Assembly (NCBI GenBank): GCA_035295165.1
Contig: DATGJN010000085.1
Coordinates: 34,707 to 98,706 of the forward strand
From: a bacterium
GTDB taxonomy: Bacteria; Sysuimicrobiota; Sysuimicrobiia; Sysuimicrobiales; Segetimicrobiaceae
Length of the DNA stretch: 64,000 bases
Direction: 5' to 3'
The notes under the pieces were generated by a model. The model made no database searches and was not told where the DNA came from. It saw only the letters and a program-made list of their open reading frames with translations. Below, piece after piece: positions 3,447 through 43,196 of the stretch; within the stretch, counting starts at the first letter, position 1; each line of letters starts with the position of its first letter. The position numbers and the translations under genes are program-made.

Positions 3447-3929
3447 CTATCGGTCAACGGGGGCAAACGTTTTGATGAAGTTGATGACATGCCACCGGTC
3501 CGCGTCCGCGATCTTGTCCTTGAATCCCGGCATCGGCGTGCCGGGCATGCCGTCCGTAATCCAGAAGTACAGCCGCCCGTCGGGGTGCGTATGTCCCGAA
3601 CCGAAATGCGCCCAGAAGTCGATCGGGCGCGGGAACAATCCGGCGGCGTCCGGTCCGTCTCCGCGGCCGTCCACCCCGTGGCAGACCTGGCAGTACGCAC
3701 GGTAGACCCGCTCGCCGGCCGCCAGCGATGCCGGCGTCGGAGGAAACGGATTACGTCGGGCGTCAATGGCGTCGGGTGCGGGGGGCGCCGACACCAGGGC
3801 CCGTGTAGCCATGATCGCAGCCAGCCCCACGGCCGCGAGTGCGACACCAAGCAGGAGCGTTCTTCGGTCCGGGATGGGCCGCACCTTGACGATCGACCTG
3901 AACTCTTGCGCGCACGCGGTACGCTCCAA
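3447..3929 (-). CDS. class I c-type cytochrome with N-terminal membrane anchor
   Basis: It has the heme-binding motif CQVCH, a downstream Met ligand region (GMPGTPMPGF) and an N-terminal hydrophobic helix. It lies immediately upstream of, and is co-oriented with, the Gfo/Idh gene. Confidence 0.8.
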   Translation of the reverse strand: MERTACAQEFRSIVKVRPIPDRRTLLLGVALAAVGLAAIMATRALVSAPPAPDAIDARRNPFPPTPASLAAGERVYRAYCQVCHGVDGRGDGPDAAGLFPRPIDFWAHFGSGHTHPDGRLYFWITDGMPGTPMPGFKDKIADADRWHVINFIKTFAPVDR

Positions 3930-9254: not shown

Positions 9255-10910
9255 GTGGGCGGCGGTAACAAGACGCGCTCCGTTCTGTATCTCGTCATCA
9301 CGGCACTGCTCGTCCTCGCGATCCCCGGGTGGTATGTGAATGCGACCGCTACGGTGGCTCACGCCCAGACCTCCGGCAACGGTGGCGGCGGCGGCGCGGG
9401 TGGTGGCGCCGGCAACGGCAACGGCTTGCCCGGTAACCCCGGGACCACCGTAGTGGGTGGCGGGACCGGCGGCTCCGGAGGGGCTGCGGGTACGACCGGC
9501 GGTAGCGGCGGGCACGGCGGCGCCGGAGGCGCGGGCGGCAGCAACAACACCAATACCTCCGGCAACGGCGGTAACGGCGGCGCGGGCGGCAGCGGCAGCA
9601 ACAGCAACAGCGACGGTGGCAACGGTGGTAGCGGCGGGGCCAGCTCAGGAGGCAGCGGCGGCACCGGTGGTGCCGGCGGAGCGAACAACGGGAACGGCGG
9701 CGCCGGCGCCGCCGGCGGCGCGGGCGGCAGTTTCAACACCAACAACTCAGGCAACGGCGGCGCGGGTGGCGCCGGCGGAGCCAGTCAGAATAGCACTGGC
9801 AATACCCCGGCCGGTGGCAATGGCAACGGGGGCGCCGGTGGCACCGGCGGCGCGAATTCCGGTGGCAGCGGCGGGACCGGTGGCGGGGGTGGCACCGGGA
9901 ACGGCAACGCCGGCGCGGGTGGCGCCGGCGGCAACGGCGGCAACGTCGGCGGCACTGCCACCGGCGGCAACAGCAATAACTCCGGAGACGGCGGTGCCGG
10001 CGGGGCCGGTGGGACCGGCGGCATCAACAACGGCGACGGTGGAAGCGGCGGGACTGGCGGAGCCGGCGTCGGCGGGAGCAGCGGCGGGACCGGCGGCACC
10101 GGTGGCGCCGGCAATGGGACCGGCGGCGCGGGCGGCACGGGCGGCGCGGGTGGTACGGCCAACAACACCGCCTCCGGCAACGGCGGTGCGGCTGGCGCCG
10201 GCGGAGCCGGCGGCAATACGAACGGCGGCGGCGGCGCGGGCGGTCTCGGCACGACAGTCGCCGGCGGTAACGGAGGAGCGGGTGGTAGCACGAACGGGAC
10301 CGGTGGGGCCGGCGGCGCCGGTGGTGCCGGCGGGAACGCGAACATCGGTCAGACGACCGGGCCAGGGGCGCTGGGCGGCTCTGGGAATGGCGGCGCCGGC
10401 GGCAAGGGCGGTGCCGGTGGAAGCAGCAATGGCATCGGTGGGACCGGTGGGGCTGGCGTAAACGGCGGGGCCGGCGGGAACAGCAACGGTGACGGTGGAA
10501 GCGGCAGCGCCGGCGGCAGCGGCGGCAACAGCAACGCCAACGGCTCCGGCAACGGTGGCGCCGGCGGCAATGCCGGTGGTGGTGGTAGCAACAACGGCAC
10601 AGGTGGTAACGGCGGGGCGAGCGCCGGCGCGGCCGGCGGCAGCAACAACGGCAACGGCGGCGGCGGCGGCGCGGGCGGTGGCGGCGGCAACAGCAACACC
10701 AACGGCTCCGGCAACGGTGGGGCCGGCGGCACGGGAGCGACGGGTGGCAACAGCAACGGCAATGCGTCCGGCTCAGCCGCTGGGACGAACGAGAACGGCA
10801 ACGGCGGCGCGGGCGGTGGCGGTGGTACCGGCGGGAACAATAACGGCGGCAACTCCGGCAACGGCGGCGCGGGCGGTAATGGCGCTCCAGGCGGGAACAA
10901 CAACAACTAA
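9255..10910 (+). CDS. secreted glycine/asparagine-rich (Gly-Gly-X)n repeat protein, PGRS-like
   Basis: GTG start with a perfect AGGAGG 8 nt upstream, and an N-terminal signal peptide (LVLAIPGWYVNATATVAHA-Q). About 500 aa follow of GGAGGxGG / GNGG / NSNGNG repeats with almost no hydrophobic or aromatic residues. A perfect hairpin terminator follows. Confidence 0.75.
   Translation: MGGGNKTRSVLYLVITALLVLAIPGWYVNATATVAHAQTSGNGGGGGAGGGAGNGNGLPGNPGTTVVGGGTGGSGGAAGTTGGSGGHGGAGGAGGSNNTNTSGNGGNGGAGGSGSNSNSDGGNGGSGGASSGGSGGTGGAGGANNGNGGAGAAGGAGGSFNTNNSGNGGAGGAGGASQNSTGNTPAGGNGNGGAGGTGGANSGGSGGTGGGGGTGNGNAGAGGAGGNGGNVGGTATGGNSNNSGDGGAGGAGGTGGINNGDGGSGGTGGAGVGGSSGGTGGTGGAGNGTGGAGGTGGAGGTANNTASGNGGAAGAGGAGGNTNGGGGAGGLGTTVAGGNGGAGGSTNGTGGAGGAGGAGGNANIGQTTGPGALGGSGNGGAGGKGGAGGSSNGIGGTGGAGVNGGAGGNSNGDGGSGSAGGSGGNSNANGSGNGGAGGNAGGGGSNNGTGGNGGASAGAAGGSNNGNGGGGGAGGGGGNSNTNGSGNGGAGGTGATGGNSNGNASGSAAGTNENGNGGAGGGGGTGGNNNGGNSGNGGAGGNGAPGGNNNN
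9370..10900. repeat. degenerate tandem GGC/GGN-rich coding repeats (low-complexity DNA)
   Basis: About 1.5 kb of imperfect ggcggcgccggcgg-type repeats produces long ORFs in most frames on both strands (Gly-rich, Ala-rich and antisense Pro-rich). Confidence 0.8.
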
Positions 10911-11115: not shown

Positions 11116-14100
11116 GTGAAGACTCCTTCGACCGACGACGAGCACAACCCGCGGACACCGCTCTCCATGCTCATCGTCGGAGACCGCCCAACCGACAGTG
11201 CCCTGGTGGTCGACAAACTTCGCCAGCACGGGTTCGACGTCGAGTGGCACCGCGTGGAGCACGAGTCGGACTACCTGGCACGCCTCAGCCCTGAACTGGA
11301 TGTCATCGTGGTCGACGACGGCCTGCTGCAGGTGGACGCCCGCCGCGCGATCGCGCTGGCGAAGGACCGCAACCTCGATGTGCCGATCGTCGTGGCCGTG
11401 GCGGCGCTCGGAGACGAAGCCGAGGCGTTGGTGAGCCGGTGGGGCGCCACCGATTGCGTGGTCAAGCCACACCTGCCGCTGCTTGCGCACGTGGTGGAAC
11501 GAGCGCGGACCCACCGACGCCTGCGACACGAACAGACGCAACTCCGCCGACGCTTGGACGCGTTCGTCGAAAATAGCTACGACGCCCTCGCGTTGATCGG
11601 TGACGATCTGAGAGTTCGGTACGCGAGCCCCTCGATTCGCCGCGTCATGGGCATCGAACTCAACGATTTCGTCGGACACGAAATTCTGGAGTTCGTGCAC
11701 GCCGATGACCACGAGCAGGTCCGCCGCGCCTACGACGCGCTCCGCCGCGATCCGACCCGCACGCAGGCGTCGCTCATCAGGCACCGACACGGAGATGGGT
11801 CCTGGCGCTTGGTGGAGATCACCCGCCGCAACCTCCTCGCCGAACCCAGCGTGCGCGCCATCGTGGTCAACTTCCGGGACGTGACGGAGCGCGAAACGGC
11901 GCAGAACGCGCTGCAACAAAGCGCATCGCGGTATCGAGGTTTGTTCGAGAGGGTGCCCATCGGACTGTACCTGACCCGCACCAACGGGACGTTCGTGGAC
12001 GCCAATCCAGCGTTCCTCGAGATGCTCGGGTATCCGGACCGCGCCACCCTTCGAGGAATCAACGCGACCTCGCTGTACGTCGACCCGGGCGCCCGCGAGC
12101 GGCTCACCGAGGCGCTCGAACGCGACGGTGTCGTGACGGGGTGGGAAAGCGCGCTCCGTCGGCGGGACGGCACGATCCTCTGGGGACGAGCGAACGTGCG
12201 CGCCGTTCACGACCCGACCGGCGAGGGGGACGGCCTCGAAGGCGCCATCATCGATATCACCGACCAACGCGCCGCCGAGACCGCCCTGCGGGACAACGAG
12301 CAGCGTTTCCGCGCATTGATCGAACACGGTTTTGATATCATCCTGCTCCTCGACCGACGCGGCATCATCCAGTACGCCAGCCCCTCCGCCGAGCGCGTCC
12401 TCGGCTACGAGCCCGACGCTCTCCTCGGCCGCGACCGCCTCGAGCTCGTCCACCCCGACGACCGCGCCGAACTGCGGCATCGGTTTGCGAGCCTGGTCGA
12501 GCACCCGGACGGGCAGGCGTTCACGCAAGCTCGGCTGCGGCACCGGGACGGCACGTGGCGCTGGACGGAGTCGGTGGCGACCAACCTGCTTCATGATTCC
12601 AGTGTGCAGGCCGTGGTGGCGAACTACCGCGACATCACCGTGCGAAAGTTGGCAGAGGAAGAGAACCAGCGACGTGCGGCACACCTCGAGACGATCAACG
12701 CGATCGTGGCGGCCGCCGTGTCGGCGCGCGACCTGGGGCAACTGCTGGAGCACACGGTCGACCTGACGCTCCACGCGCTGGGGCATACGATGGGGGGCAT
12801 CTGGATCGGGACGGAACATCGGGGCAGCGGCATGTCGGCGGACGTGGGCCCGTCGATCCTGCGGGCGGCGGCGTCGCTGGGGCAGGTCCTTGACGCCTCG
12901 GAGGCCGTCGCGGACGCGCGTGCGCCCGACGCGCACGGGTTGGCATCCGTAATGAAGGGCCTCGGCATTCTCGCCTGGATCGCCGCGCCTATCCGGGCCG
13001 GGGGACGCGCGATCGGGGGCATCGCCGTGGCGTCACCGGTGCCGTGCGCGTGGCGCCCGGACGAGACTGCGCTCGTGGAGACCGTGGGACGGCAGATCGG
13101 CGAGGCGGCCGAGCGGCTGGATCTGTTGCAACGCGCCGAACGGCGCACGGCGGAGTTGTTGGCGGTCACAGACCTCGGCCGCCGGCTCCGCGAGGCGGCA
13201 AGTGTGACCGACATGTACCCCATCATCGTCGAACACGCCATGCAGGTGCTCGCGAGTGAACACGGAGCCCTCGCGCTCTTGAACGAAGACGAAGAGTCCT
13301 TCACGCGGGTGTACGCGAGGGGGGTCTCAACGGAACCGCCCGGATCGACGTTCCCCGCGGCCGGCAGTCGATCGATGGAGGTTGTGCGAACGGGCATCCC
13401 GCGTGTGGCCAAAGATATCGGCGAGGAGCAGCGTCCGCCGTGGATGGATCACTTCAGCTACCGAGACTTCGGCCCGTACCTCGTGGTGGCGGTGCGATCC
13501 GAAGCGGAGAGCATCGGGACCCTCACGCTGCTCCGACGGAAGACCGGCCAGGATCGATCGTTCAGCGAGGACGACGTGCGCGTGCTGATGGGGATTGCCG
13601 AAATCGCCGGCTCGGCCATCCGGCGAGGACGCCTGCAACAAAGCCTGGAGCAATCGTACATCGAGATGGTGCTCGCGCTAGCCCGGGCCGTGGACGCCCG
13701 GGACAGCTACACCGGCGACCACAGCGAGCGCATCGCCGCACGAGCCGTCGCAACGGCGCGAGCGCTCGGATGCACCGACGATGAGACACAGACCATCCAT
13801 TGGGCCGCGTTGCTGCATGACATCGGCAAGCTCAGCGTGCCCGATCAGATCCTCAAGAAGCCCAGCCCGCTCACGGCGGCCGAGTGGGATGTCATGCGCG
13901 AGCATCCCACGATCGGCGAACAGATCTTGCGGCCGATCGAACGGATGCATGGGGTCGCCGCGATCATTCGCCACCACCACGAACGATGGGATGGTACGGG
14001 CTATCCCGACCGTCTGCAGGGCGACGAGATCCCGCTCGGGGCCCGTATTCTCGCGGTGGCCGACGCCTACAGCGCCATCATCGATACTCGAGCGTACGAC

Positions 14101-15288
14101 GCGGGCAGGCCCAAGAACGAGGCGATCGCGGAGATCCGCCAGTGCGCCAGCACGCAGTTCGATCCCGCCGTCGCCGACGTCTTCTGCCGTGTGATCGAGC
14201 ACGCCGACGCGGCGATCGTCCCGGTCGCGGAGATGGCCTCTGCGGGCAATGAGTCCATCCGATCACTGGCCTCGGCGGTGGTACAGCCGTTTCAGCAAAA
14301 CCGGCACCTCCGCCGCGCCGCCCCGGCGGTGGCGGACGTGGCACAACGACTCCTGCGGCCCCTCGATCTCACGGCCGTGCTCGAGGCGATCCTGAGCCAG
14401 ATCCAGAGTGTGTTCGGGTATCCGATCTGCGGCGTGCTTCTGCTGGATGAGCGGACCCGAGAGCTGCGCGTGGCCGCCCAGCGCGGGTTCGATCCCGATG
14501 TCGTGACCGGACTGCGGCTCCGGGTCGGCGAGCAAGGGATCGCCGGCTGGGTCGCGCAGCGGGGACGGTCCTACTACGCGCCTGACGTTACCCTGGATTC
14601 TCTGTACGTCGCGGGGTCATCGTCCGCGCGGTCGAACGTCGCGTTTCCGCTGATGGTCGACGACCGGACAATCGGTGTCCTGGACGTCGAGAGCCCGAGC
14701 GTCGACGCGTTCCCGAAGGAAACCCGCGAATTCCTCGCGACGTTCGCGGTCCTCGCCGCGCTTGCCATTCTCCGCGCCCAACGGGACGAGAATCTCAGCG
14801 AGCTCGCGCGCACCGACGGGTTGACCGGCCTCGCGAACCATCGGGCGATCCTGCAGGATCTCGAGCGCGAGATCGTACGCGCCCGCCGCAGCGGCCACCC
14901 CGTGTCGGTGGCGCTCGTAGAGATCGATGGGTTCAAGCGGCTCAACGACAAGTTCGGTCACCTGCAGGGCGATCTGGTGCTGCGGGAGGTGGCCGACGTG
15001 CTCCGCCGGCATTCTCGCGCCGGCGATCTCGTCGGGCGGTTCGGCGGCGACGAGTTCGTGCTGGTGCTGCCCCAGGCGACAAAGAACGTGGCCGCACAGA
15101 TCGTGGAGCGAGTGCGGGGGCACGTCGAGGAGATCCGCGTCCCGGGCAACGAGCGCACGTTGAGCGTCAGCATCGGACTGGCCGCCCATCCCGCCGACGG
15201 CGACGATCCGGACGGTCTTCTGGAATCGGCAGATCACGCCATGTATCAGGCGAAGCGCAACGGCGGCAACCGCGTGTGCGTAGCCTAA
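11116..15288 (+). CDS. multidomain c-di-GMP signalling protein: REC-like – 3x PAS – 2x GAF – HD-GYP – GAF – GGDEF
   Basis: A 1390-aa ORF. N-terminal receiver-like fold (LIVGD...DVIVVDDG...CVVKP). Three PAS blocks. GAF domains. An HD-GYP domain (HDIGK ... HHERWDGTGYP). A C-terminal GGDEF domain with intact RxxD I-site and GGDEF motif (RAGDLVGRFGGDEF). Confidence 0.9.
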   Translation: MKTPSTDDEHNPRTPLSMLIVGDRPTDSALVVDKLRQHGFDVEWHRVEHESDYLARLSPELDVIVVDDGLLQVDARRAIALAKDRNLDVPIVVAVAALGDEAEALVSRWGATDCVVKPHLPLLAHVVERARTHRRLRHEQTQLRRRLDAFVENSYDALALIGDDLRVRYASPSIRRVMGIELNDFVGHEILEFVHADDHEQVRRAYDALRRDPTRTQASLIRHRHGDGSWRLVEITRRNLLAEPSVRAIVVNFRDVTERETAQNALQQSASRYRGLFERVPIGLYLTRTNGTFVDANPAFLEMLGYPDRATLRGINATSLYVDPGARERLTEALERDGVVTGWESALRRRDGTILWGRANVRAVHDPTGEGDGLEGAIIDITDQRAAETALRDNEQRFRALIEHGFDIILLLDRRGIIQYASPSAERVLGYEPDALLGRDRLELVHPDDRAELRHRFASLVEHPDGQAFTQARLRHRDGTWRWTESVATNLLHDSSVQAVVANYRDITVRKLAEEENQRRAAHLETINAIVAAAVSARDLGQLLEHTVDLTLHALGHTMGGIWIGTEHRGSGMSADVGPSILRAAASLGQVLDASEAVADARAPDAHGLASVMKGLGILAWIAAPIRAGGRAIGGIAVASPVPCAWRPDETALVETVGRQIGEAAERLDLLQRAERRTAELLAVTDLGRRLREAASVTDMYPIIVEHAMQVLASEHGALALLNEDEESFTRVYARGVSTEPPGSTFPAAGSRSMEVVRTGIPRVAKDIGEEQRPPWMDHFSYRDFGPYLVVAVRSEAESIGTLTLLRRKTGQDRSFSEDDVRVLMGIAEIAGSAIRRGRLQQSLEQSYIEMVLALARAVDARDSYTGDHSERIAARAVATARALGCTDDETQTIHWAALLHDIGKLSVPDQILKKPSPLTAAEWDVMREHPTIGEQILRPIERMHGVAAIIRHHHERWDGTGYPDRLQGDEIPLGARILAVADAYSAIIDTRAYDAGRPKNEAIAEIRQCASTQFDPAVADVFCRVIEHADAAIVPVAEMASAGNESIRSLASAVVQPFQQNRHLRRAAPAVADVAQRLLRPLDLTAVLEAILSQIQSVFGYPICGVLLLDERTRELRVAAQRGFDPDVVTGLRLRVGEQGIAGWVAQRGRSYYAPDVTLDSLYVAGSSSARSNVAFPLMVDDRTIGVLDVESPSVDAFPKETREFLATFAVLAALAILRAQRDENLSELARTDGLTGLANHRAILQDLEREIVRARRSGHPVSVALVEIDGFKRLNDKFGHLQGDLVLREVADVLRRHSRAGDLVGRFGGDEFVLVLPQATKNVAAQIVERVRGHVEEIRVPGNERTLSVSIGLAAHPADGDDPDGLLESADHAMYQAKRNGGNRVCVA

Positions 15289-22133: not shown

Positions 22134-22946
22134 TCAACGTGATGTCTTGCTCCGAGGTGCCCCGGGATCGGCACGTTCCGTCAACACCACCAAGCCATGA
22201 GGATTGCGCAGCAGCAGTCGCTGGCGGCCGGCGTCGATGAGCCCCTGCAACTGCCACCGGCTGACAATGCGACTTGCGGTGTACAGCGTGGTCCCGGCCA
22301 GTCCGGCCAGATCTCCGCGCGAGAGCGGCATATCGAGCAGAACGCCCCCGTCCACTTTGCGGCCGGCGTGATCGGCCAACCGCAGGACGGCCTGTGCGAG
22401 CCGTTGTTCCGCCCGATCCGCAACCTGCTCGGAGAACCGAGATTGCATCTCGAGCATCCGCGCGGTCACGATGCGAAGGACGTTGACCACAAGCGCAGGG
22501 TACCGTGCGAACAGGGTGGCGATCGTCCGACTGTCCCATACCAGTGCTTCCGCCGGAGCGGTCGCTTCGGCCGACACGGGGTACGTCGTTCCCCTTAACG
22601 CGGCGACGGTGCCAAACGCGTCACCGTGCCCGATCACCTGGATGATCACCTCCTGCCCGTCCTGGTGCACGAGCGTGAGCTTGATCTTGCCGCGGACAAG
22701 CACGTACATCGCGACCGCAGGGTCTCCCTGGCGGAACAACAGCGCCTTGCGGGGCGCCCGCGCCCGACTAGAGACTCGCACGACAGACGCGCGGGCGGCC
22801 GGCGAGAGGCCCCGGAACAGCGCGACAGGCCCAAGAAGATCGTCCGACTGGTCCACGGGCACCCTCACCACCTCCACGTGGAGCCGCGCGGCTCTGTGGT
22901 TCCGCCGGTCCGGGACACGCGCAATGCAAGTCCTCGGCCGCGACAC
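22134..22946 (-). CDS. Crp/Fnr family transcriptional regulator
   Basis: A cNMP-binding fold (LFRGLSPAA...FRQGDPA...YVLVRGKIKL) plus a C-terminal HTH (RGDLAGLAGTTLYTASRIVSRW). The true start is probably downstream of the first ATG. Confidence 0.8.
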   Translation of the reverse strand: MSRPRTCIARVPDRRNHRAARLHVEVVRVPVDQSDDLLGPVALFRGLSPAARASVVRVSSRARAPRKALLFRQGDPAVAMYVLVRGKIKLTLVHQDGQEVIIQVIGHGDAFGTVAALRGTTYPVSAEATAPAEALVWDSRTIATLFARYPALVVNVLRIVTARMLEMQSRFSEQVADRAEQRLAQAVLRLADHAGRKVDGGVLLDMPLSRGDLAGLAGTTLYTASRIVSRWQLQGLIDAGRQRLLLRNPHGLVVLTERADPGAPRSKTSR

Positions 22947-25307: not shown

Positions 25308-26102
25308 GTGGACGGAGGTTGGAGCGGTGGCCCCGCGGGCACGACACGCCATTCAGCAGTGTGGGATGACAAAGGGAAACGGGTGGCATCTTACGGGACA
25401 TGGGTTCCATACGCAGGCGTTGCGGCACGATTCTTAGCCGCTGTGCTGCTCGCCGTCGCGGCGGTGTTTTGGTACCTCGGGAACAGATTACGCGGCCCAG
25501 TTGCGGTTGAAAGGCCTGGGGCCGTTGTTAGCGGCTTTATGATCGTTATCTGGGCTCTATCAATATGGACGACGCTCGTCGCGTTCTACGCTTACGGGGT
25601 GCAGCTGTATGAAGTGCATCTGTTTTCGCGACCGCCGGTGGACCGGATTGCTCCCATCACTGTGCTGACCGCCGCGATCACCTTCTTCACAATCCTGTAT
25701 ATGACAAAGACGCACGGATGGAAGGTCGCTCTTGGCAGCGCGTTTGTCGGTGCCGCCGCGGCTCCAATGATCTTTGAGCTGCCATTTGATCTCATCGTCA
25801 TGGCCCGAACCGTCCCTTCCATTCCTCCTGCTCCAACACTGTATAGAGAGCTTTTCTTCTTTCCCTTGTTCATCGCCGAGATTTCGACAATCGCCCTCCT
25901 CACGCTGCTCCCTTCGATGAGGATATCAAGCTACACACTATACTCGCTTGCGGCAATGTTCTTTGTGTTCGCAGTGTGGGCGGTGTTAGGCTTCCACTAT
26001 CCAACCGATCCGATTCCCTACGCACTGAACGCCGTATCCAAGGTGGTGAGTTTCGTCAGCGTGATCACGCTCTTCTTGGATGGAAAGAACGCCAAGACCT
26101 AG
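25308..26102 (+). CDS. hypothetical integral membrane protein (about 6 TM segments)
   Basis: 264 aa with multiple hydrophobic helices. The locus has noticeably lower GC than its surroundings. No recognisable family. Confidence 0.55.
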   Translation: MDGGWSGGPAGTTRHSAVWDDKGKRVASYGTWVPYAGVAARFLAAVLLAVAAVFWYLGNRLRGPVAVERPGAVVSGFMIVIWALSIWTTLVAFYAYGVQLYEVHLFSRPPVDRIAPITVLTAAITFFTILYMTKTHGWKVALGSAFVGAAAAPMIFELPFDLIVMARTVPSIPPAPTLYRELFFFPLFIAEISTIALLTLLPSMRISSYTLYSLAAMFFVFAVWAVLGFHYPTDPIPYALNAVSKVVSFVSVITLFLDGKNAKT

Positions 26103-28760: not shown

Positions 28761-29142
28761 CGTCACCCCTCCGATCTGATCCGCGTCGCGGGACTTCCCG
28801 CGCCGGTGCCGCTCACGTCCGCGCCACCAGCACCGCGAGCGTCGCCGCCATCGCAACGACGACTCCTCGAGGCAGCGTCTTCGTCGGCGTTGTCCCGCCT
28901 CCTTGAACCGCCGCGCGGACGGTACGTCCAGCGCCACGGCATCGCTCGCGCTGGAAGTGTGGGGCACGATGAACCAGTAGGCACCCGATCTCCTCGATGG
29001 CTGAGCCAAACTGGATGGGCTACTGACGTCGCGCCGACTCGATCACCGCACGGGCGTTTGGCGGCCGGCTCGCAATTCGATCACTTCCTTTCCTCTTGGA
29101 ACCAGCCGGCGGATGAAGCAGTGTCACCGCAGCGGCGCGTCT

Positions 29143-29172
29143 TGTGAATCTTCACATTGTGAACGTGTGAAG
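29143..29172. promoter_or_regulatory. operator-like array of four TGTGAA half-sites including two overlapping perfect palindromes
   Basis: TGTGAAtcTTCACAtTGTGAAcgTGTGAAg lies in an AT-rich stretch 70-100 nt upstream of the ATG at 29241. The TGTGA half-site is the one recognised by Crp-family regulators. Confidence 0.5.
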
Positions 29173-29240
29173 CCCATGAAATATGAAGGCGACTCTGCCG
29201 GGTAACATCCTAGAAGACTAGAGATAAGGAGGAGATCCCG

Positions 29241-29597
29241 ATGCTGGTCAGACAGGCGGGCGTAGGCGTGTTGATTCTGGCGCTCGCGTTCGCAGGCATG
29301 AACACCCTGCCCGCGGCGCTGCCACAAGCACACGCGCAAAGCTACGGCGTCGCCGGCACGATCTTGGGGCTCGCCATCATCGCGGGCGTCGTCTACCTCG
29401 TTTCCCGAGATCGGGACGGCGTGTACCATCGCTACTACTACGGGAGGTATAACGGGCCGCATTACCGGTACGAAGGAGCCTACTACAACGCGTACCCGCG
29501 GTATCACGATCGATACTATCGCGGTCCCTTGCCGGGCCGGTGGCGTAGCAACGAGGGGTGTGTGGGCGGACCGCCCTGGGTTGCGGAGTGCCGCTAG
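29241..29597 (+). CDS. small secreted/membrane-anchored Tyr/Arg-rich protein
   Basis: ATG with AAGGAGG upstream. N-terminal hydrophobic segments are followed by YHRYYYGRYNGPHYRYEGAYYNAYPRYHDRYYRGP and a CxxxxxxxxC C-terminus. Confidence 0.6.
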   Translation: MLVRQAGVGVLILALAFAGMNTLPAALPQAHAQSYGVAGTILGLAIIAGVVYLVSRDRDGVYHRYYYGRYNGPHYRYEGAYYNAYPRYHDRYYRGPLPGRWRSNEGCVGGPPWVAECR

Positions 29598-29617
29598 CGC
29601 GCACGAACGGTCCTACA

Positions 29618-29659
29618 CGAGGGGGCCCGGAGCCGCGATCGTGGCTTCGGGCCCCCTCG
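29618..29659 (+). terminator. GC-rich hairpin, probable terminator
   Basis: cgagggggcccg ... cgggccccctcg forms a 12-bp stem 20 nt after the stop of the Tyr-rich gene. There is no T-tract. Confidence 0.4.
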
Positions 29660-29824
29660 TACACGGCTCCGGAGCTGACGCCGGCCCGGCACCAGATCCG
29701 GCCGCGCGTACGTCCGTACGTCCCCGCTGGATCAGTCGGCGGGCGAACACAGAGATACGAGCGTGTCGATGCTTGGGGGGCAGAGCTTGCTTCCGCCACA
29801 TCTGCGCGATGGTGACAATTGATC

Positions 29825-29973
29825 ATGCGAACCATCACTCTGGAAGAACACTACGCAAGCCCCGCGTTTCTGGAAGGCCCTGGGCGAAAGCTGATCAACT
29901 GCCAGTCAGCTCCACCGACAGGGAACGGATCGCCCATGGCAATGCCGAACGCCTCCTTCGATTCTTTGCGTGA
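29825..29973 (+). pseudogene. relic of an amidohydrolase-2 (COG2159) gene retaining only the N- and C-terminal ends
   Basis: MRTITLEEHYASPAFLEGPGRKL (the typical N-terminus) is joined out of frame to ...TDRERIAHGNAERLLRFFA* (the typical C-terminus). The roughly 850 bp expected between them are missing. Confidence 0.55.
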
Positions 29974-30086
29974 GGTGGCAATCTAGCGCCTCAGTATCGC
30001 CAAGCGCTGACCGGGAATGCTCCGCGCCCCGACGTCACCCGCGCTGACGTCGTAAGCGAGCAAGGGATCCGCCAAAACGGGTGCGA

Positions 30087-42225: not shown

Positions 42226-43074
42226 TCATTCCGGCGCACCGTGGCCGGATGCGACCCGCACGACACCTCGGACGATGTCGCGAAACGCCTCGTCGAAATT
42301 CACGCCGTGAATACCCCAGGCGTAGTCGATCCCGTGGTAACGCATTCTCCACGAGCCGGCCCACCCTGGCACCGCCCGTTTGAACGCCAACGTGCCTGCG
42401 ACCACCGCCTCGTCCGCCGAGGGTGCAACCTGCGGCGAAGGAAACTGTCCCACCGTGACGCCCCACGCGGCAAAATCAGCGTCGGTCGGAAAGCGCACCT
42501 GCATGCCCAAATCCCGGGCCACGTCGGCGAATGCCACACGCTGATCGGCGCCGGCGGGGCTCTCGGCGCTCAGCAAGTAGGCCGCGGTGTACCCACGCAC
42601 CATGAGCACCGGCATGATCACCGGCCGTTGCCCCCGCCAGGGCTGTTCGCCCAGATCCGCCAGCGCCTTGTCGATCAGCGCGGGGACGAAATGCACGGTG
42701 AGGTTGAACGGTCGATCGTACGTCCCCTGGTCGTCGTGATGGTGATACGCGGCCAGTTGGTCCACATAGTCAAAGGATGCGACGAAAAGGTCCGCCTCCG
42801 CAGCCAATCTGTCGACCCGCGGATCGTGGGATAGCCGCGGCTCCCCGGAGACCTTCACGAGCACCTCGCGCAGGCATCGCGCGAATCCGGTCGGACGGCT
42901 GCGCCGGTCCGACCCTGTCACCACGGCGGTCGCCTGATACCGATTGCTCATGTCCTGGGCCCCGCTCGATCGGGCGACGGTCACAACGGGCGCGACGGAG
43001 ATCATGACGAGGAATAGCGCGAACGTACGCGACCGGCGCCGTGCTTGCCAATCCGTCATCGTCTGTCTCCTCAT
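42226..43074 (-). CDS. exported hypothetical protein
   Basis: N-terminal RR-containing signal (RRRSRTFALFLVMISVAPVVTVA) followed by a non-repetitive soluble domain. Confidence 0.65.
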   Translation of the reverse strand: MRRQTMTDWQARRRSRTFALFLVMISVAPVVTVARSSGAQDMSNRYQATAVVTGSDRRSRPTGFARCLREVLVKVSGEPRLSHDPRVDRLAAEADLFVASFDYVDQLAAYHHHDDQGTYDRPFNLTVHFVPALIDKALADLGEQPWRGQRPVIMPVLMVRGYTAAYLLSAESPAGADQRVAFADVARDLGMQVRFPTDADFAAWGVTVGQFPSPQVAPSADEAVVAGTLAFKRAVPGWAGSWRMRYHGIDYAWGIHGVNFDEAFRDIVRGVVRVASGHGAPE

Positions 43075-43196
43075 CGGTAATAACCATCTATATCGCATTA
43101 TAGGTTATTGCGATCTGTCACGGAACCCTCCCCCAGTCAAACTCCCATTGGCCGGCAACATGCTACGATGGTTGGCGACGGACATGGAGGCGAAGA

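Follow-up and report, generated by a model that had tools for sequence, protein, structure and literature searches.

The subject of this analysis is an array of TGTGAA hexamers that lies upstream of a small gene in a 64,000-nucleotide (nt) stretch of bacterial DNA, referred to at its full length as the window (contig DATGJN010000085.1, positions 34,707 to 98,706; Segetimicrobiaceae). The gene encodes a protein of 118 amino acids (aa), and the array is read here, on the strength of sequence comparison, as a selected operator. More specifically, and with moderate confidence, it is proposed to be an operator to which a protein binds, adjoining the promoter of a gene that stands alone, is transcribed by itself and encodes a small membrane protein with a tail rich in tyrosine and arginine. 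In its logic of control such a unit is ordinary: an operator adjoins a monocistronic promoter. That the element has a function tied to this gene is suggested chiefly by its conservation together with its exclusive placement in 168 kb of compared DNA.

The array, TGTGAAtcTTCACAtTGTGAAcgTGTGAAg, is present at 29143-29172 as a first-pass annotation of the window had quoted it, within a stretch that on direct reading is cTTGTGAAtcTTCACAtTGTGAAcgTGTGAAgccc. Its four hexamers are found at 29143-48 (+), 29151-56 (inverted), 29158-63 (+) and 29166-71 (+), and they include two perfect palindromes, of 6-2-6 and 6-1-6 layout, which overlap and share the second hexamer. Successive half-site centres are 8, 7 and 8 base pairs (bp) apart. 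Measured between pentamers, the spacings are TGTGA-N4-TCACA and TCACA-N1-TGTGA, the non-classical geometry of which the annotation had already cautioned. The parts of the array are as follows.

29143-29156, no strand assigned: TGTGAA-tc-TTCACA, a 14-bp palindrome formed by hexamers 1 and 2 in 6-2-6 layout, whose half-site centres are 8 bp apart.
29151-29163, no strand assigned: TTCACA-t-TGTGAA, a 13-bp palindrome formed by hexamers 2 and 3 in 6-1-6 layout, whose half-site centres are 7 bp apart and which is shared with the closest orthologous locus.
29166-29171, plus strand: fourth hexamer TGTGAA, a direct repeat of hexamer 3 in an 8-bp register.
29175-29189, plus strand: degenerate TGAA units, cATGAAAtATGAAGG, equivalent in position to the palindrome of the closest orthologous locus (L008), at equal distance to a GGGTAA box and identical at 9 of 15 bases.
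Proposed operator written as search patterns: TTCACANTGTGAA and TGTGAANNTTCACA.

The equivalence of cATGAAAtATGAAGG comes from a MAFFT alignment of the upstream regions of the window and L008, together with direct reading.

The clustering of these hexamers is statistically exceptional. TGTGAA or TTCACA occurs 21 times on both strands of the 64 kb, against 13.6 expected, and 4 of the 21 occurrences fall in the array. When the whole window was simulated 150 times with a first-order Markov model, no 29-nt span held more than two hexamers, and the maximum was again two in 50,000 shuffles of the region 29040-29240; no other hexamer of the window reaches four non-overlapping copies in 29 nt. The simulations and the palindrome of L008 both favour the cis-regulatory behaviour that the annotation had ascribed to the array. 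The description of an AT-rich island also holds, as the lowest GC content of any 100-nt segment (0.46) begins at 29137 and lies in the lowest 0.01% of such segments, but the background from which it stands out averages 66.5% GC (standard deviation 0.053 on a fraction of 0.665) and not 70%. Tandem Repeats Finder, at a score of 30 or more, reported nothing at the array, and a repeat search overlooks arms of 6 nt.

Conservation was examined across the window and 24 loci (168 kb, of which the related loci make up 104 kb), with upstream regions gathered from 14 independent loci of the family. L008, the closest orthologous locus (72% aa identity), has a perfect 17-bp palindrome of 8-1-8 layout, CCTTCACAaTGTGAAGG, at 1430-1446, within which positions 1432-1444 read TTCACAaTGTGAA; the window and L008 both keep a perfect TTCACAnTGTGAA palindrome upstream of the gene. 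Synonymous divergence between the two orthologues is saturated (dS = 2.06, with 44% identity at third codon positions). Because of this saturation, a neutral palindrome of 12 specified bases would not be expected to survive in both lineages, and the chance of finding one in a 200-nt upstream region is estimated at about 4e-6 (frequencies of 0.2 each for A and T and 0.3 each for G and C). Two or more hexamers within 40 nt were found, in the 168 kb, solely upstream of this gene, in the window and the L008 group. Within the DNA searched, the motif did not recur at other genes: neither palindrome has a further copy in the window, the 14-bp form has no copy in the related loci, and in these the motif occurs only at the orthologous position.

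The same figures bear on the possibility that the array has no function and arose when replication slipped, or a segment was duplicated, in an AT-rich intergenic spacer. The units of the array are short and roughly tandem, and the neighbourhood is rearranged, with an amidohydrolase remnant in the window and transposases at L008 and L003; yet a palindrome stands in both lineages despite saturation, its chance occurrence is very improbable, and the L008 copy is a perfect 17-mer. Such an origin is regarded as distinctly unlikely.

The gene downstream of the proposed operator belongs to a compact unit with the following features.

29241-29597, plus strand: open reading frame (ORF) of the 118-aa protein, backed by homologues, codon GC content and the ratio of nonsynonymous to synonymous substitution (dN/dS).
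29226-29232, plus strand: Shine-Dalgarno site AAGGAGG, 8 nt ahead of the ATG; the L008 equivalent is TAAGGAGG.
29617-29660, plus strand: perfect 20-bp hairpin, rich in G+C, that probably terminates transcription of a monocistronic unit (-54.7 kcal/mol, z = -4.9).

Sequence comparison indicates that the ORF is a real gene under purifying selection, as the annotation had supposed. A homologue search returned 15 relatives with 52-72% identity, all from soil and forest metagenomes and unclassified metagenome-assembled genomes (MAGs), and a scan of genome contigs added a single distant relative, in an unclassified MAG. Against the L008 orthologue dN/dS is 0.10, and the GC content by codon position (0.66/0.50/0.79) is like that of other genes of this genome. 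None of 200 shuffles folds as well as the downstream hairpin, which is without a T tract and was thus missed by a simple terminator scan.

Because neighbouring genes differ in almost every homologous locus fetched, the 118-aa gene behaves as a self-contained unit; the gene context of the window is not conserved and offers no functional link. Transposase genes adjoin the small gene in L008 (2300-3109, HTH_38 and rve) and in L003 (1862-3162, rve and HTH_Tnp_1), flanks that fit a location in rearrangement-prone regions. Downstream in the window lies what looks like the remnant of an amidohydrolase (29819-29986, plus strand, and 29560-29973, plus strand in another frame), with an N-terminal-like part, MRTITLEEHYASPAFLE, in one frame and a C-terminal part, DRERIAHGNAERLLRF, in a different one; DRERIAHGNAERLLRF aligns with the final 30 positions of the Pfam model Amidohydro_2 at a score below the cutoff (E = 0.002), and the middle of the gene is missing.

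Two other loci have neighbours of a different kind. In L022 (232-1909) the homologue follows hsp20 by 37 nt and precedes a CBS and BON gene in an apparent shared operon, and in L006 (3768-4528) the ORF ahead of it, of 55 aa, resembles CsbD when judged by eye. The family may thus be linked to stress, although the hints are thin and come from these two loci only. The first ~70 nt of the 423-nt upstream stretch in L006 (about 3600-3650) hold Gram-positive-type LexA (Cheo) boxes, CGAACGTATGTTCG and CGAACGAACG. These head a divergent block of three minus-strand genes, of 243 aa, 475 aa (with an IMS domain) and more than 800 aa, which by eye resembles an imuA-imuB-dnaE2 mutagenesis cassette, with Pfam support for the IMS domain alone. 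A PAS-GGDEF gene is found just downstream of the homologue in the same locus.

Between the array and the Shine-Dalgarno site lies a candidate promoter.

29179-29205, plus strand: putative non-sigma-70 core promoter, AAATA (29179-83), 16 nt, then GGGTAA (29200-05), with CCTAG following at 29209-13.

CGGGTAA..CCTAG and the Shine-Dalgarno site are common to the window and L008, and in several loci of greater distance GCATA-N14/15-GGGGAT stands at a comparable place. Six of the 14 family loci contain the pattern (N)HATR-N14-17-GGG[GT]A against 0.36 expected in shuffles, a count that is no more than suggestive, given a post hoc pattern and related loci; where it matches, (N)HATR precedes the GGGTAA or GGGGAT box by 14-16 nt. 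No sigma-70 consensus promoter was detected in the window or L008, and GGGTAA or GGGGAT boxes ahead of other window genes were uninformative. The GGG(T/G)A box resembles the -10 element of sigmaB/sigmaF-type (group-3) sigma factors, whose promoters combine a GGGTAT-like -10 with a -35 element some 12-17 nt ahead of it, and this suggests an alternative, stress-type sigma factor at this promoter. In L008 the centre of the palindrome (1438) falls inside a -35-like CAATG (1436-1440), 16 nt ahead of GGGTAA, and in the window the array ends 8 nt ahead of the equivalent AAATA.

An alternative is that there is no dedicated regulator, and that an alternative sigma factor or the alpha subunit of RNA polymerase uses the hexamers as repeated copies of a -35-like or upstream promoter element, derived by local duplication of TGTGAAGG/TATGAAGG at the -35 position. 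T(G/A)TGAAGG stands 10 nt from GGGTAA in both the window and L008, the window shows a decaying series of units of about 8 nt (TGTGAAcg, TGTGAAgc, ccATGAAa, tATGAAgg), and the absence of a detected sigma-70 promoter would suit it. Promoter elements are directional, however, and the perfect inverted symmetry (17 bp in L008, 13 and 14 bp in the window) is unexpected in them and very unlikely by chance; moreover, the rest of the family lacks hexamer repeats, and its -35-like element is a different one, GCATA. This alternative appears unlikely.

A role of the array at the RNA level, as a 5' leader element with alternative hairpins or sites for an RNA-binding protein, seems extremely improbable. Overlapping inverted repeats could give mutually exclusive 6-bp hairpins, but the stems would be short and A/U-rich, the leader folds no better than shuffles (z = -0.27), no Rfam family matches at the gathering score or at E <= 1, and the array lies upstream of the conserved, promoter-like GGGTAA box. 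A DNA cruciform was likewise set aside, its potential being weak (-4.9 kcal/mol, z = -1.1), as was an upstream ORF of 9 aa, ATGAAATATGAAGGCGACTCTGCCGGGTAA (29176-29205), which has no Shine-Dalgarno site and whose L008 equivalent is ATG-TGA. When consensus sequences were compared by eye, none of the LexA Cheo box (GAAC-N4-GTTC), DnaA box, Zur/Fur boxes, ARG boxes, PhoP direct repeats or Spo0A box fits the array.

The product of the gene has two hydrophobic segments and a tail rich in Tyr and Arg, as had been described, although the two Cys of the tail stand at positions 107 and 117 and the last two residues are -CR. The N-terminal segment is signal-like and ends in a conserved LPQAHAQ. The second occupies residues 35-54 (its 19-mer 36-54 has a Kyte-Doolittle value of 2.29) and is followed by SRDRDG. 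The tail of 64 aa consists of 20% Tyr, 17% Arg, 14% Gly and 9% Pro, contains no Lys and has a net charge of +5. AlphaFold2 gives helices at 2-22 and 32-58 and a disordered tail, with a mean predicted local distance difference test (pLDDT) score of 55. Because the second hydrophobic stretch is followed by a tail of charge +5, the positive-inside rule predicts a cytoplasmic tail, and on this model the protein is probably membrane-anchored whether or not the first segment is cleaved. The earlier designation of the protein as secreted is therefore probably wrong, since a second hydrophobic stretch of 19 residues ahead of such a tail does not agree with a soluble protein secreted by the Sec system, which would have a signal peptide with an AXA cleavage site and no other segment that spans the membrane. 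The suggested roles of the tail in metal binding, cell-wall binding or redox chemistry are speculation. Enrichment in Tyr and Arg resembles the 'sticker' composition of eukaryotic FUS-family domains.

The 118-aa protein has no match in Pfam, NCBIfam or PHROGs, its best PDB sequence match has E = 1, and a literature search for its peptide motifs gave nothing relevant. A profile search of 1.84 billion cluster representatives returned only 16 matches, the weaker of which are larger proteins with two copies of the module of about 60 aa that the 118-aa protein itself carries (hydrophobic segment, RDxDG, YRYPYYG and Tyr/Arg tail), GxVLGx5Gx2YLVxRDxDGxxYRYPYYGxY...YYRPEYRPYxGxY. Among the matches found, the module is confined to a handful of soil metagenome lineages. 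The metagenomic proteins P0018-P0027 and P0107-P0111 (L024 5001-5315) are 130-430 aa long, carry the module in duplicate and have a C-terminal Cys-x7-10-Cys loop, and several of the larger module proteins have a signal-like N-terminus and a cysteine-containing N-terminal domain ahead of the module. The duplicated-module proteins appear to be an undescribed repeat family.

If the array is an operator of the kind proposed, a regulator that binds short repeats would read the TGTGAA hexamer as a unit, with TTCACA-N-TGTGAA as the minimal site, and would act at a non-sigma-70 promoter with a GGGTAA box. In L008 the palindrome lies on the -35-like element, and a protein bound there would occlude RNA polymerase and thereby repress transcription. 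In the window, four perfect hexamers in an 8/7/8-bp register, followed by a pair of decayed TGAA units, adjoin the upstream side of the -35-like element, an arrangement that would allow cooperative binding of multiple copies. Half-site centres 7-8 bp apart fit arrays in which repeats of either orientation are mixed and each dimer takes a single short repeat, as with the ribbon-helix-helix (RHH) proteins omega and MetJ or Fur-like hexamers, and not helix-turn-helix dimers that span one helical turn, such as CRP and Rex. The product would sit in the membrane, with its basic, disordered, Tyr/Arg-rich tail in the cytoplasm.

Several observations weigh against this account of the operator and its gene. 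The 12 more distant family loci are without the array, which makes it lineage-specific and not family-wide, and the distance from palindrome to GGGTAA differs between the window (43 nt) and L008 (19 nt). The 8/7/8-bp register is not a strictly contiguous repeat, and Tandem Repeats Finder is silent. No gene for a small DNA-binding protein was found beside the locus in the window or in L008 by Pfam scans and a listing of nearby ORFs. The promoter model is post hoc and was drawn from related sequences, and the search for a regulon covered only 64 kb of this genome. As for the protein, the conserved Cys pair would suit a tail outside the cell better than a cytoplasmic one, and some copies of the module carry Asp, Glu or Asn in the 'hydrophobic' part, which questions a purely transmembrane role. 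A fuller version of the proposal would make the array the operator of an undescribed regulator working in a 7-8-bp register, possibly RHH- or Fur-like, that switches on or off disordered proteins of a new class, tethered to the membrane, rich in Tyr and Arg and based on the YRYPYYG...YRPY module, with the tail acting at the inner membrane face under stress (it might bind RNA or other polyanions, for instance, or associate with itself through cation-pi contacts). Taken as a whole, this version is unlikely to be correct.

Should the operator reading be true, the array would be an operator with phylogenetic-footprint support whose half-site is common to CRP, Rex and ResD and whose geometry is that of none of them. 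It would also bring the first description of a small module of uncultured soil bacteria, consisting of a hydrophobic segment, RDxDG, a Tyr/Arg/Pro-rich tail and a C-terminal Cys pair, that is absent from curated libraries. The practical value lies in an annotation that is corrected on two points, since the site is not one for Crp and the protein is probably not secreted, and in a defined promoter-operator-gene unit in a poorly known lineage; no long-standing question is answered.

Other parts of the window hold features that are separate from the array. A 551-aa ORF at 9255-10910 (plus strand), overlooked by GC3-based gene calling, has no Pfam match; after a signal-like N-terminus, about 500 of its residues form low-complexity Gly/Asn/Ala/Ser/Thr repeats (GNGGAGG...). 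Close to it, at 11116-15288 (plus strand), is a gene for a signalling protein of 1390 aa with three PAS domains and HD (HD_5), GAF and GGDEF domains. An apparently multi-pass membrane protein of 264 aa is encoded at 25308-26102 (plus strand) in DNA of unusually low GC content (down to 0.47 in 100-nt segments) and has no Pfam match. The other spot of lowest GC content (0.46), at 43010-43179 and especially 43084-43112, lies between a DUF2066 gene (minus strand) and an ABATE/zf-CGNR regulator gene (plus strand); it contains the inverted repeat AATAACC-N13-GGTTATT, which may be an operator of the adjacent regulator.

Among known systems, the Crp family was the first to be invoked for the array, with a regulator encoded elsewhere in the window as the suggested binding protein.

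22137-22862, minus strand: Crp/Fnr-family regulator (Pfam cNMP_binding and HTH_Crp_2), 242-aa form (P0030), not linked to the array.

The gene had been placed at 22134-22946 and is indeed there, but its ORF runs from 22137 to 22946 on the minus strand, and the likely true start at 22862 gives the 242-aa protein. TGTGA is the half-site of CRP and GlxR (PMC8465061), the pentamers TGTGA and TCACA of their sites are identical to those of the array, and both are inverted repeats adjacent to promoters. The sites of CRP and GlxR differ from the array in their spacer (6 nt, not 4 or 1), in the distance between half-site centres (11 bp, not 7-8) and in the array's four hexamers of mixed orientation. 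A spacer change of even 1 bp, to 5 or 7 bp, abolished in vitro binding by the Crp-family protein TTHA1359 (PMC8465061). Across the window, the canonical TGTGA-N6-TCACA with up to two mismatches was found 11 times against 15 expected, and its sole match in the array region has two mismatches.

The regulator itself aligns over its full length with GlxR (PDB 4byy/4cyd), but it has TTLYTASR where GlxR and E. coli CRP have SRETV, and the GlxR alignment is independent of the comparison with CRP. The TTLYTASR-type helix is kept in 34 of 34 homologues aligned, and the Arg-Glu pair that reads GTGA, part of an Arg-Glu...Arg/Lys helix (SRETVGR or SRETVNK), is missing. The protein falls below the cutoff of every named NCBIfam regulator model, and its nearest named homologues, with at most 48% identity, come from MAGs labelled 'bacterium', Armatimonadota and Rokubacteria. 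P0030-P0063 form a Crp/Fnr subfamily, mostly from unclassified soil MAGs, with a conserved helix GTTLYT(A/V)SR instead of the SRETV or E--SR types. Binding of this regulator to the array, through an unusual dimer geometry, would be favoured by the TGTGA half-site and by the presence of the gene 6 kb away. Given the spacing of the centres, the TTLYTASR helix, that 6-kb distance and the lack of any Crp/Fnr gene beside the small gene in the homologous loci fetched, along with the want of a second palindrome site in the window, this reading is very unlikely; the Crp/Fnr attribution is not supported and should be dropped.

The Rex consensus is TTGTGAA-W4-TTCACAA (PMC2883068), and if the array were a variant Rex operator the gene would respond to the NADH/NAD+ ratio. 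The full 7-nt half-site TTGTGAA occurs exactly, twice, in the array (29142-48 and 29157-63), and TTCACAt supplies six of seven positions of the other half; Rex sites, too, overlap promoters and repress. In contrast to the 18-bp inverted repeat of Rex, the array has a spacer of 2 nt (1 nt in the outward-facing palindrome) instead of 4 and centres 7-8 instead of 11 bp apart, and the conserved TTCACA-N-TGTGAA, including the palindrome of L008, is oppositely arranged and faces outward. No Rex-type domain appeared when most genes of the window were scanned against Pfam, and the target is neither a respiratory nor a fermentative gene. A Rex operator is thus decidedly improbable.

The OmpR-family regulators ResD and SrrA reportedly use a TTGTGAA half-site as well, upstream of the -35 element at activated promoters (Geng et al. 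2007, J Bacteriol). ResD-type sites are direct repeats about one helical turn apart, whereas the array has direct copies of TTGTGAA at a distance of 15 bp and of TGTGAA at 8 bp, and what is conserved in it is an inverted repeat. The TTGTGAA heptamer serves at least three unrelated regulator families, and the identity of a half-site is therefore not diagnostic of its regulator. A literature search for the palindrome strings themselves gave nothing relevant.

The best architectural match, by analogy and with no claim of membership, is offered by RHH repressors such as omega, with Fur-type hexamer arrays also comparable. Arrays of the omega and MetJ type have at least two contiguous units of 7-8 bp, direct or inverted, on a promoter. 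Those of the omega repressor overlap promoters and consist of 7-10 WATCACW units of 7 bp, set contiguously as direct and inverted copies, and each unit takes one RHH dimer (PMC9499535). In omega, an RHH ParB protein of pSM19035, two adjacent units are needed for high affinity. No RHH gene turned up in the window or L008 among nearby ORFs or in Pfam scans; the array is chromosomal, without a ParA or RHH gene nearby, its core is GTGAA and not GTGAT, and its register is 8/7/8 bp where that of omega is a contiguous 7 bp. On the side of likeness, both have short units (TGTGATT in omega, TGTGAAn in the array) of mixed orientation, in a 7-8-bp register on a promoter, a putative one in the case of the array: unit starts in the window are 8, 7 and 8 bp apart and abut the -35-like element, and L008 has two inverted units. 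The product of the gene resembles other small uncharacterised bacterial membrane proteins, being short and predicted to be membrane-anchored, with a disordered tail and a transcription unit of its own.

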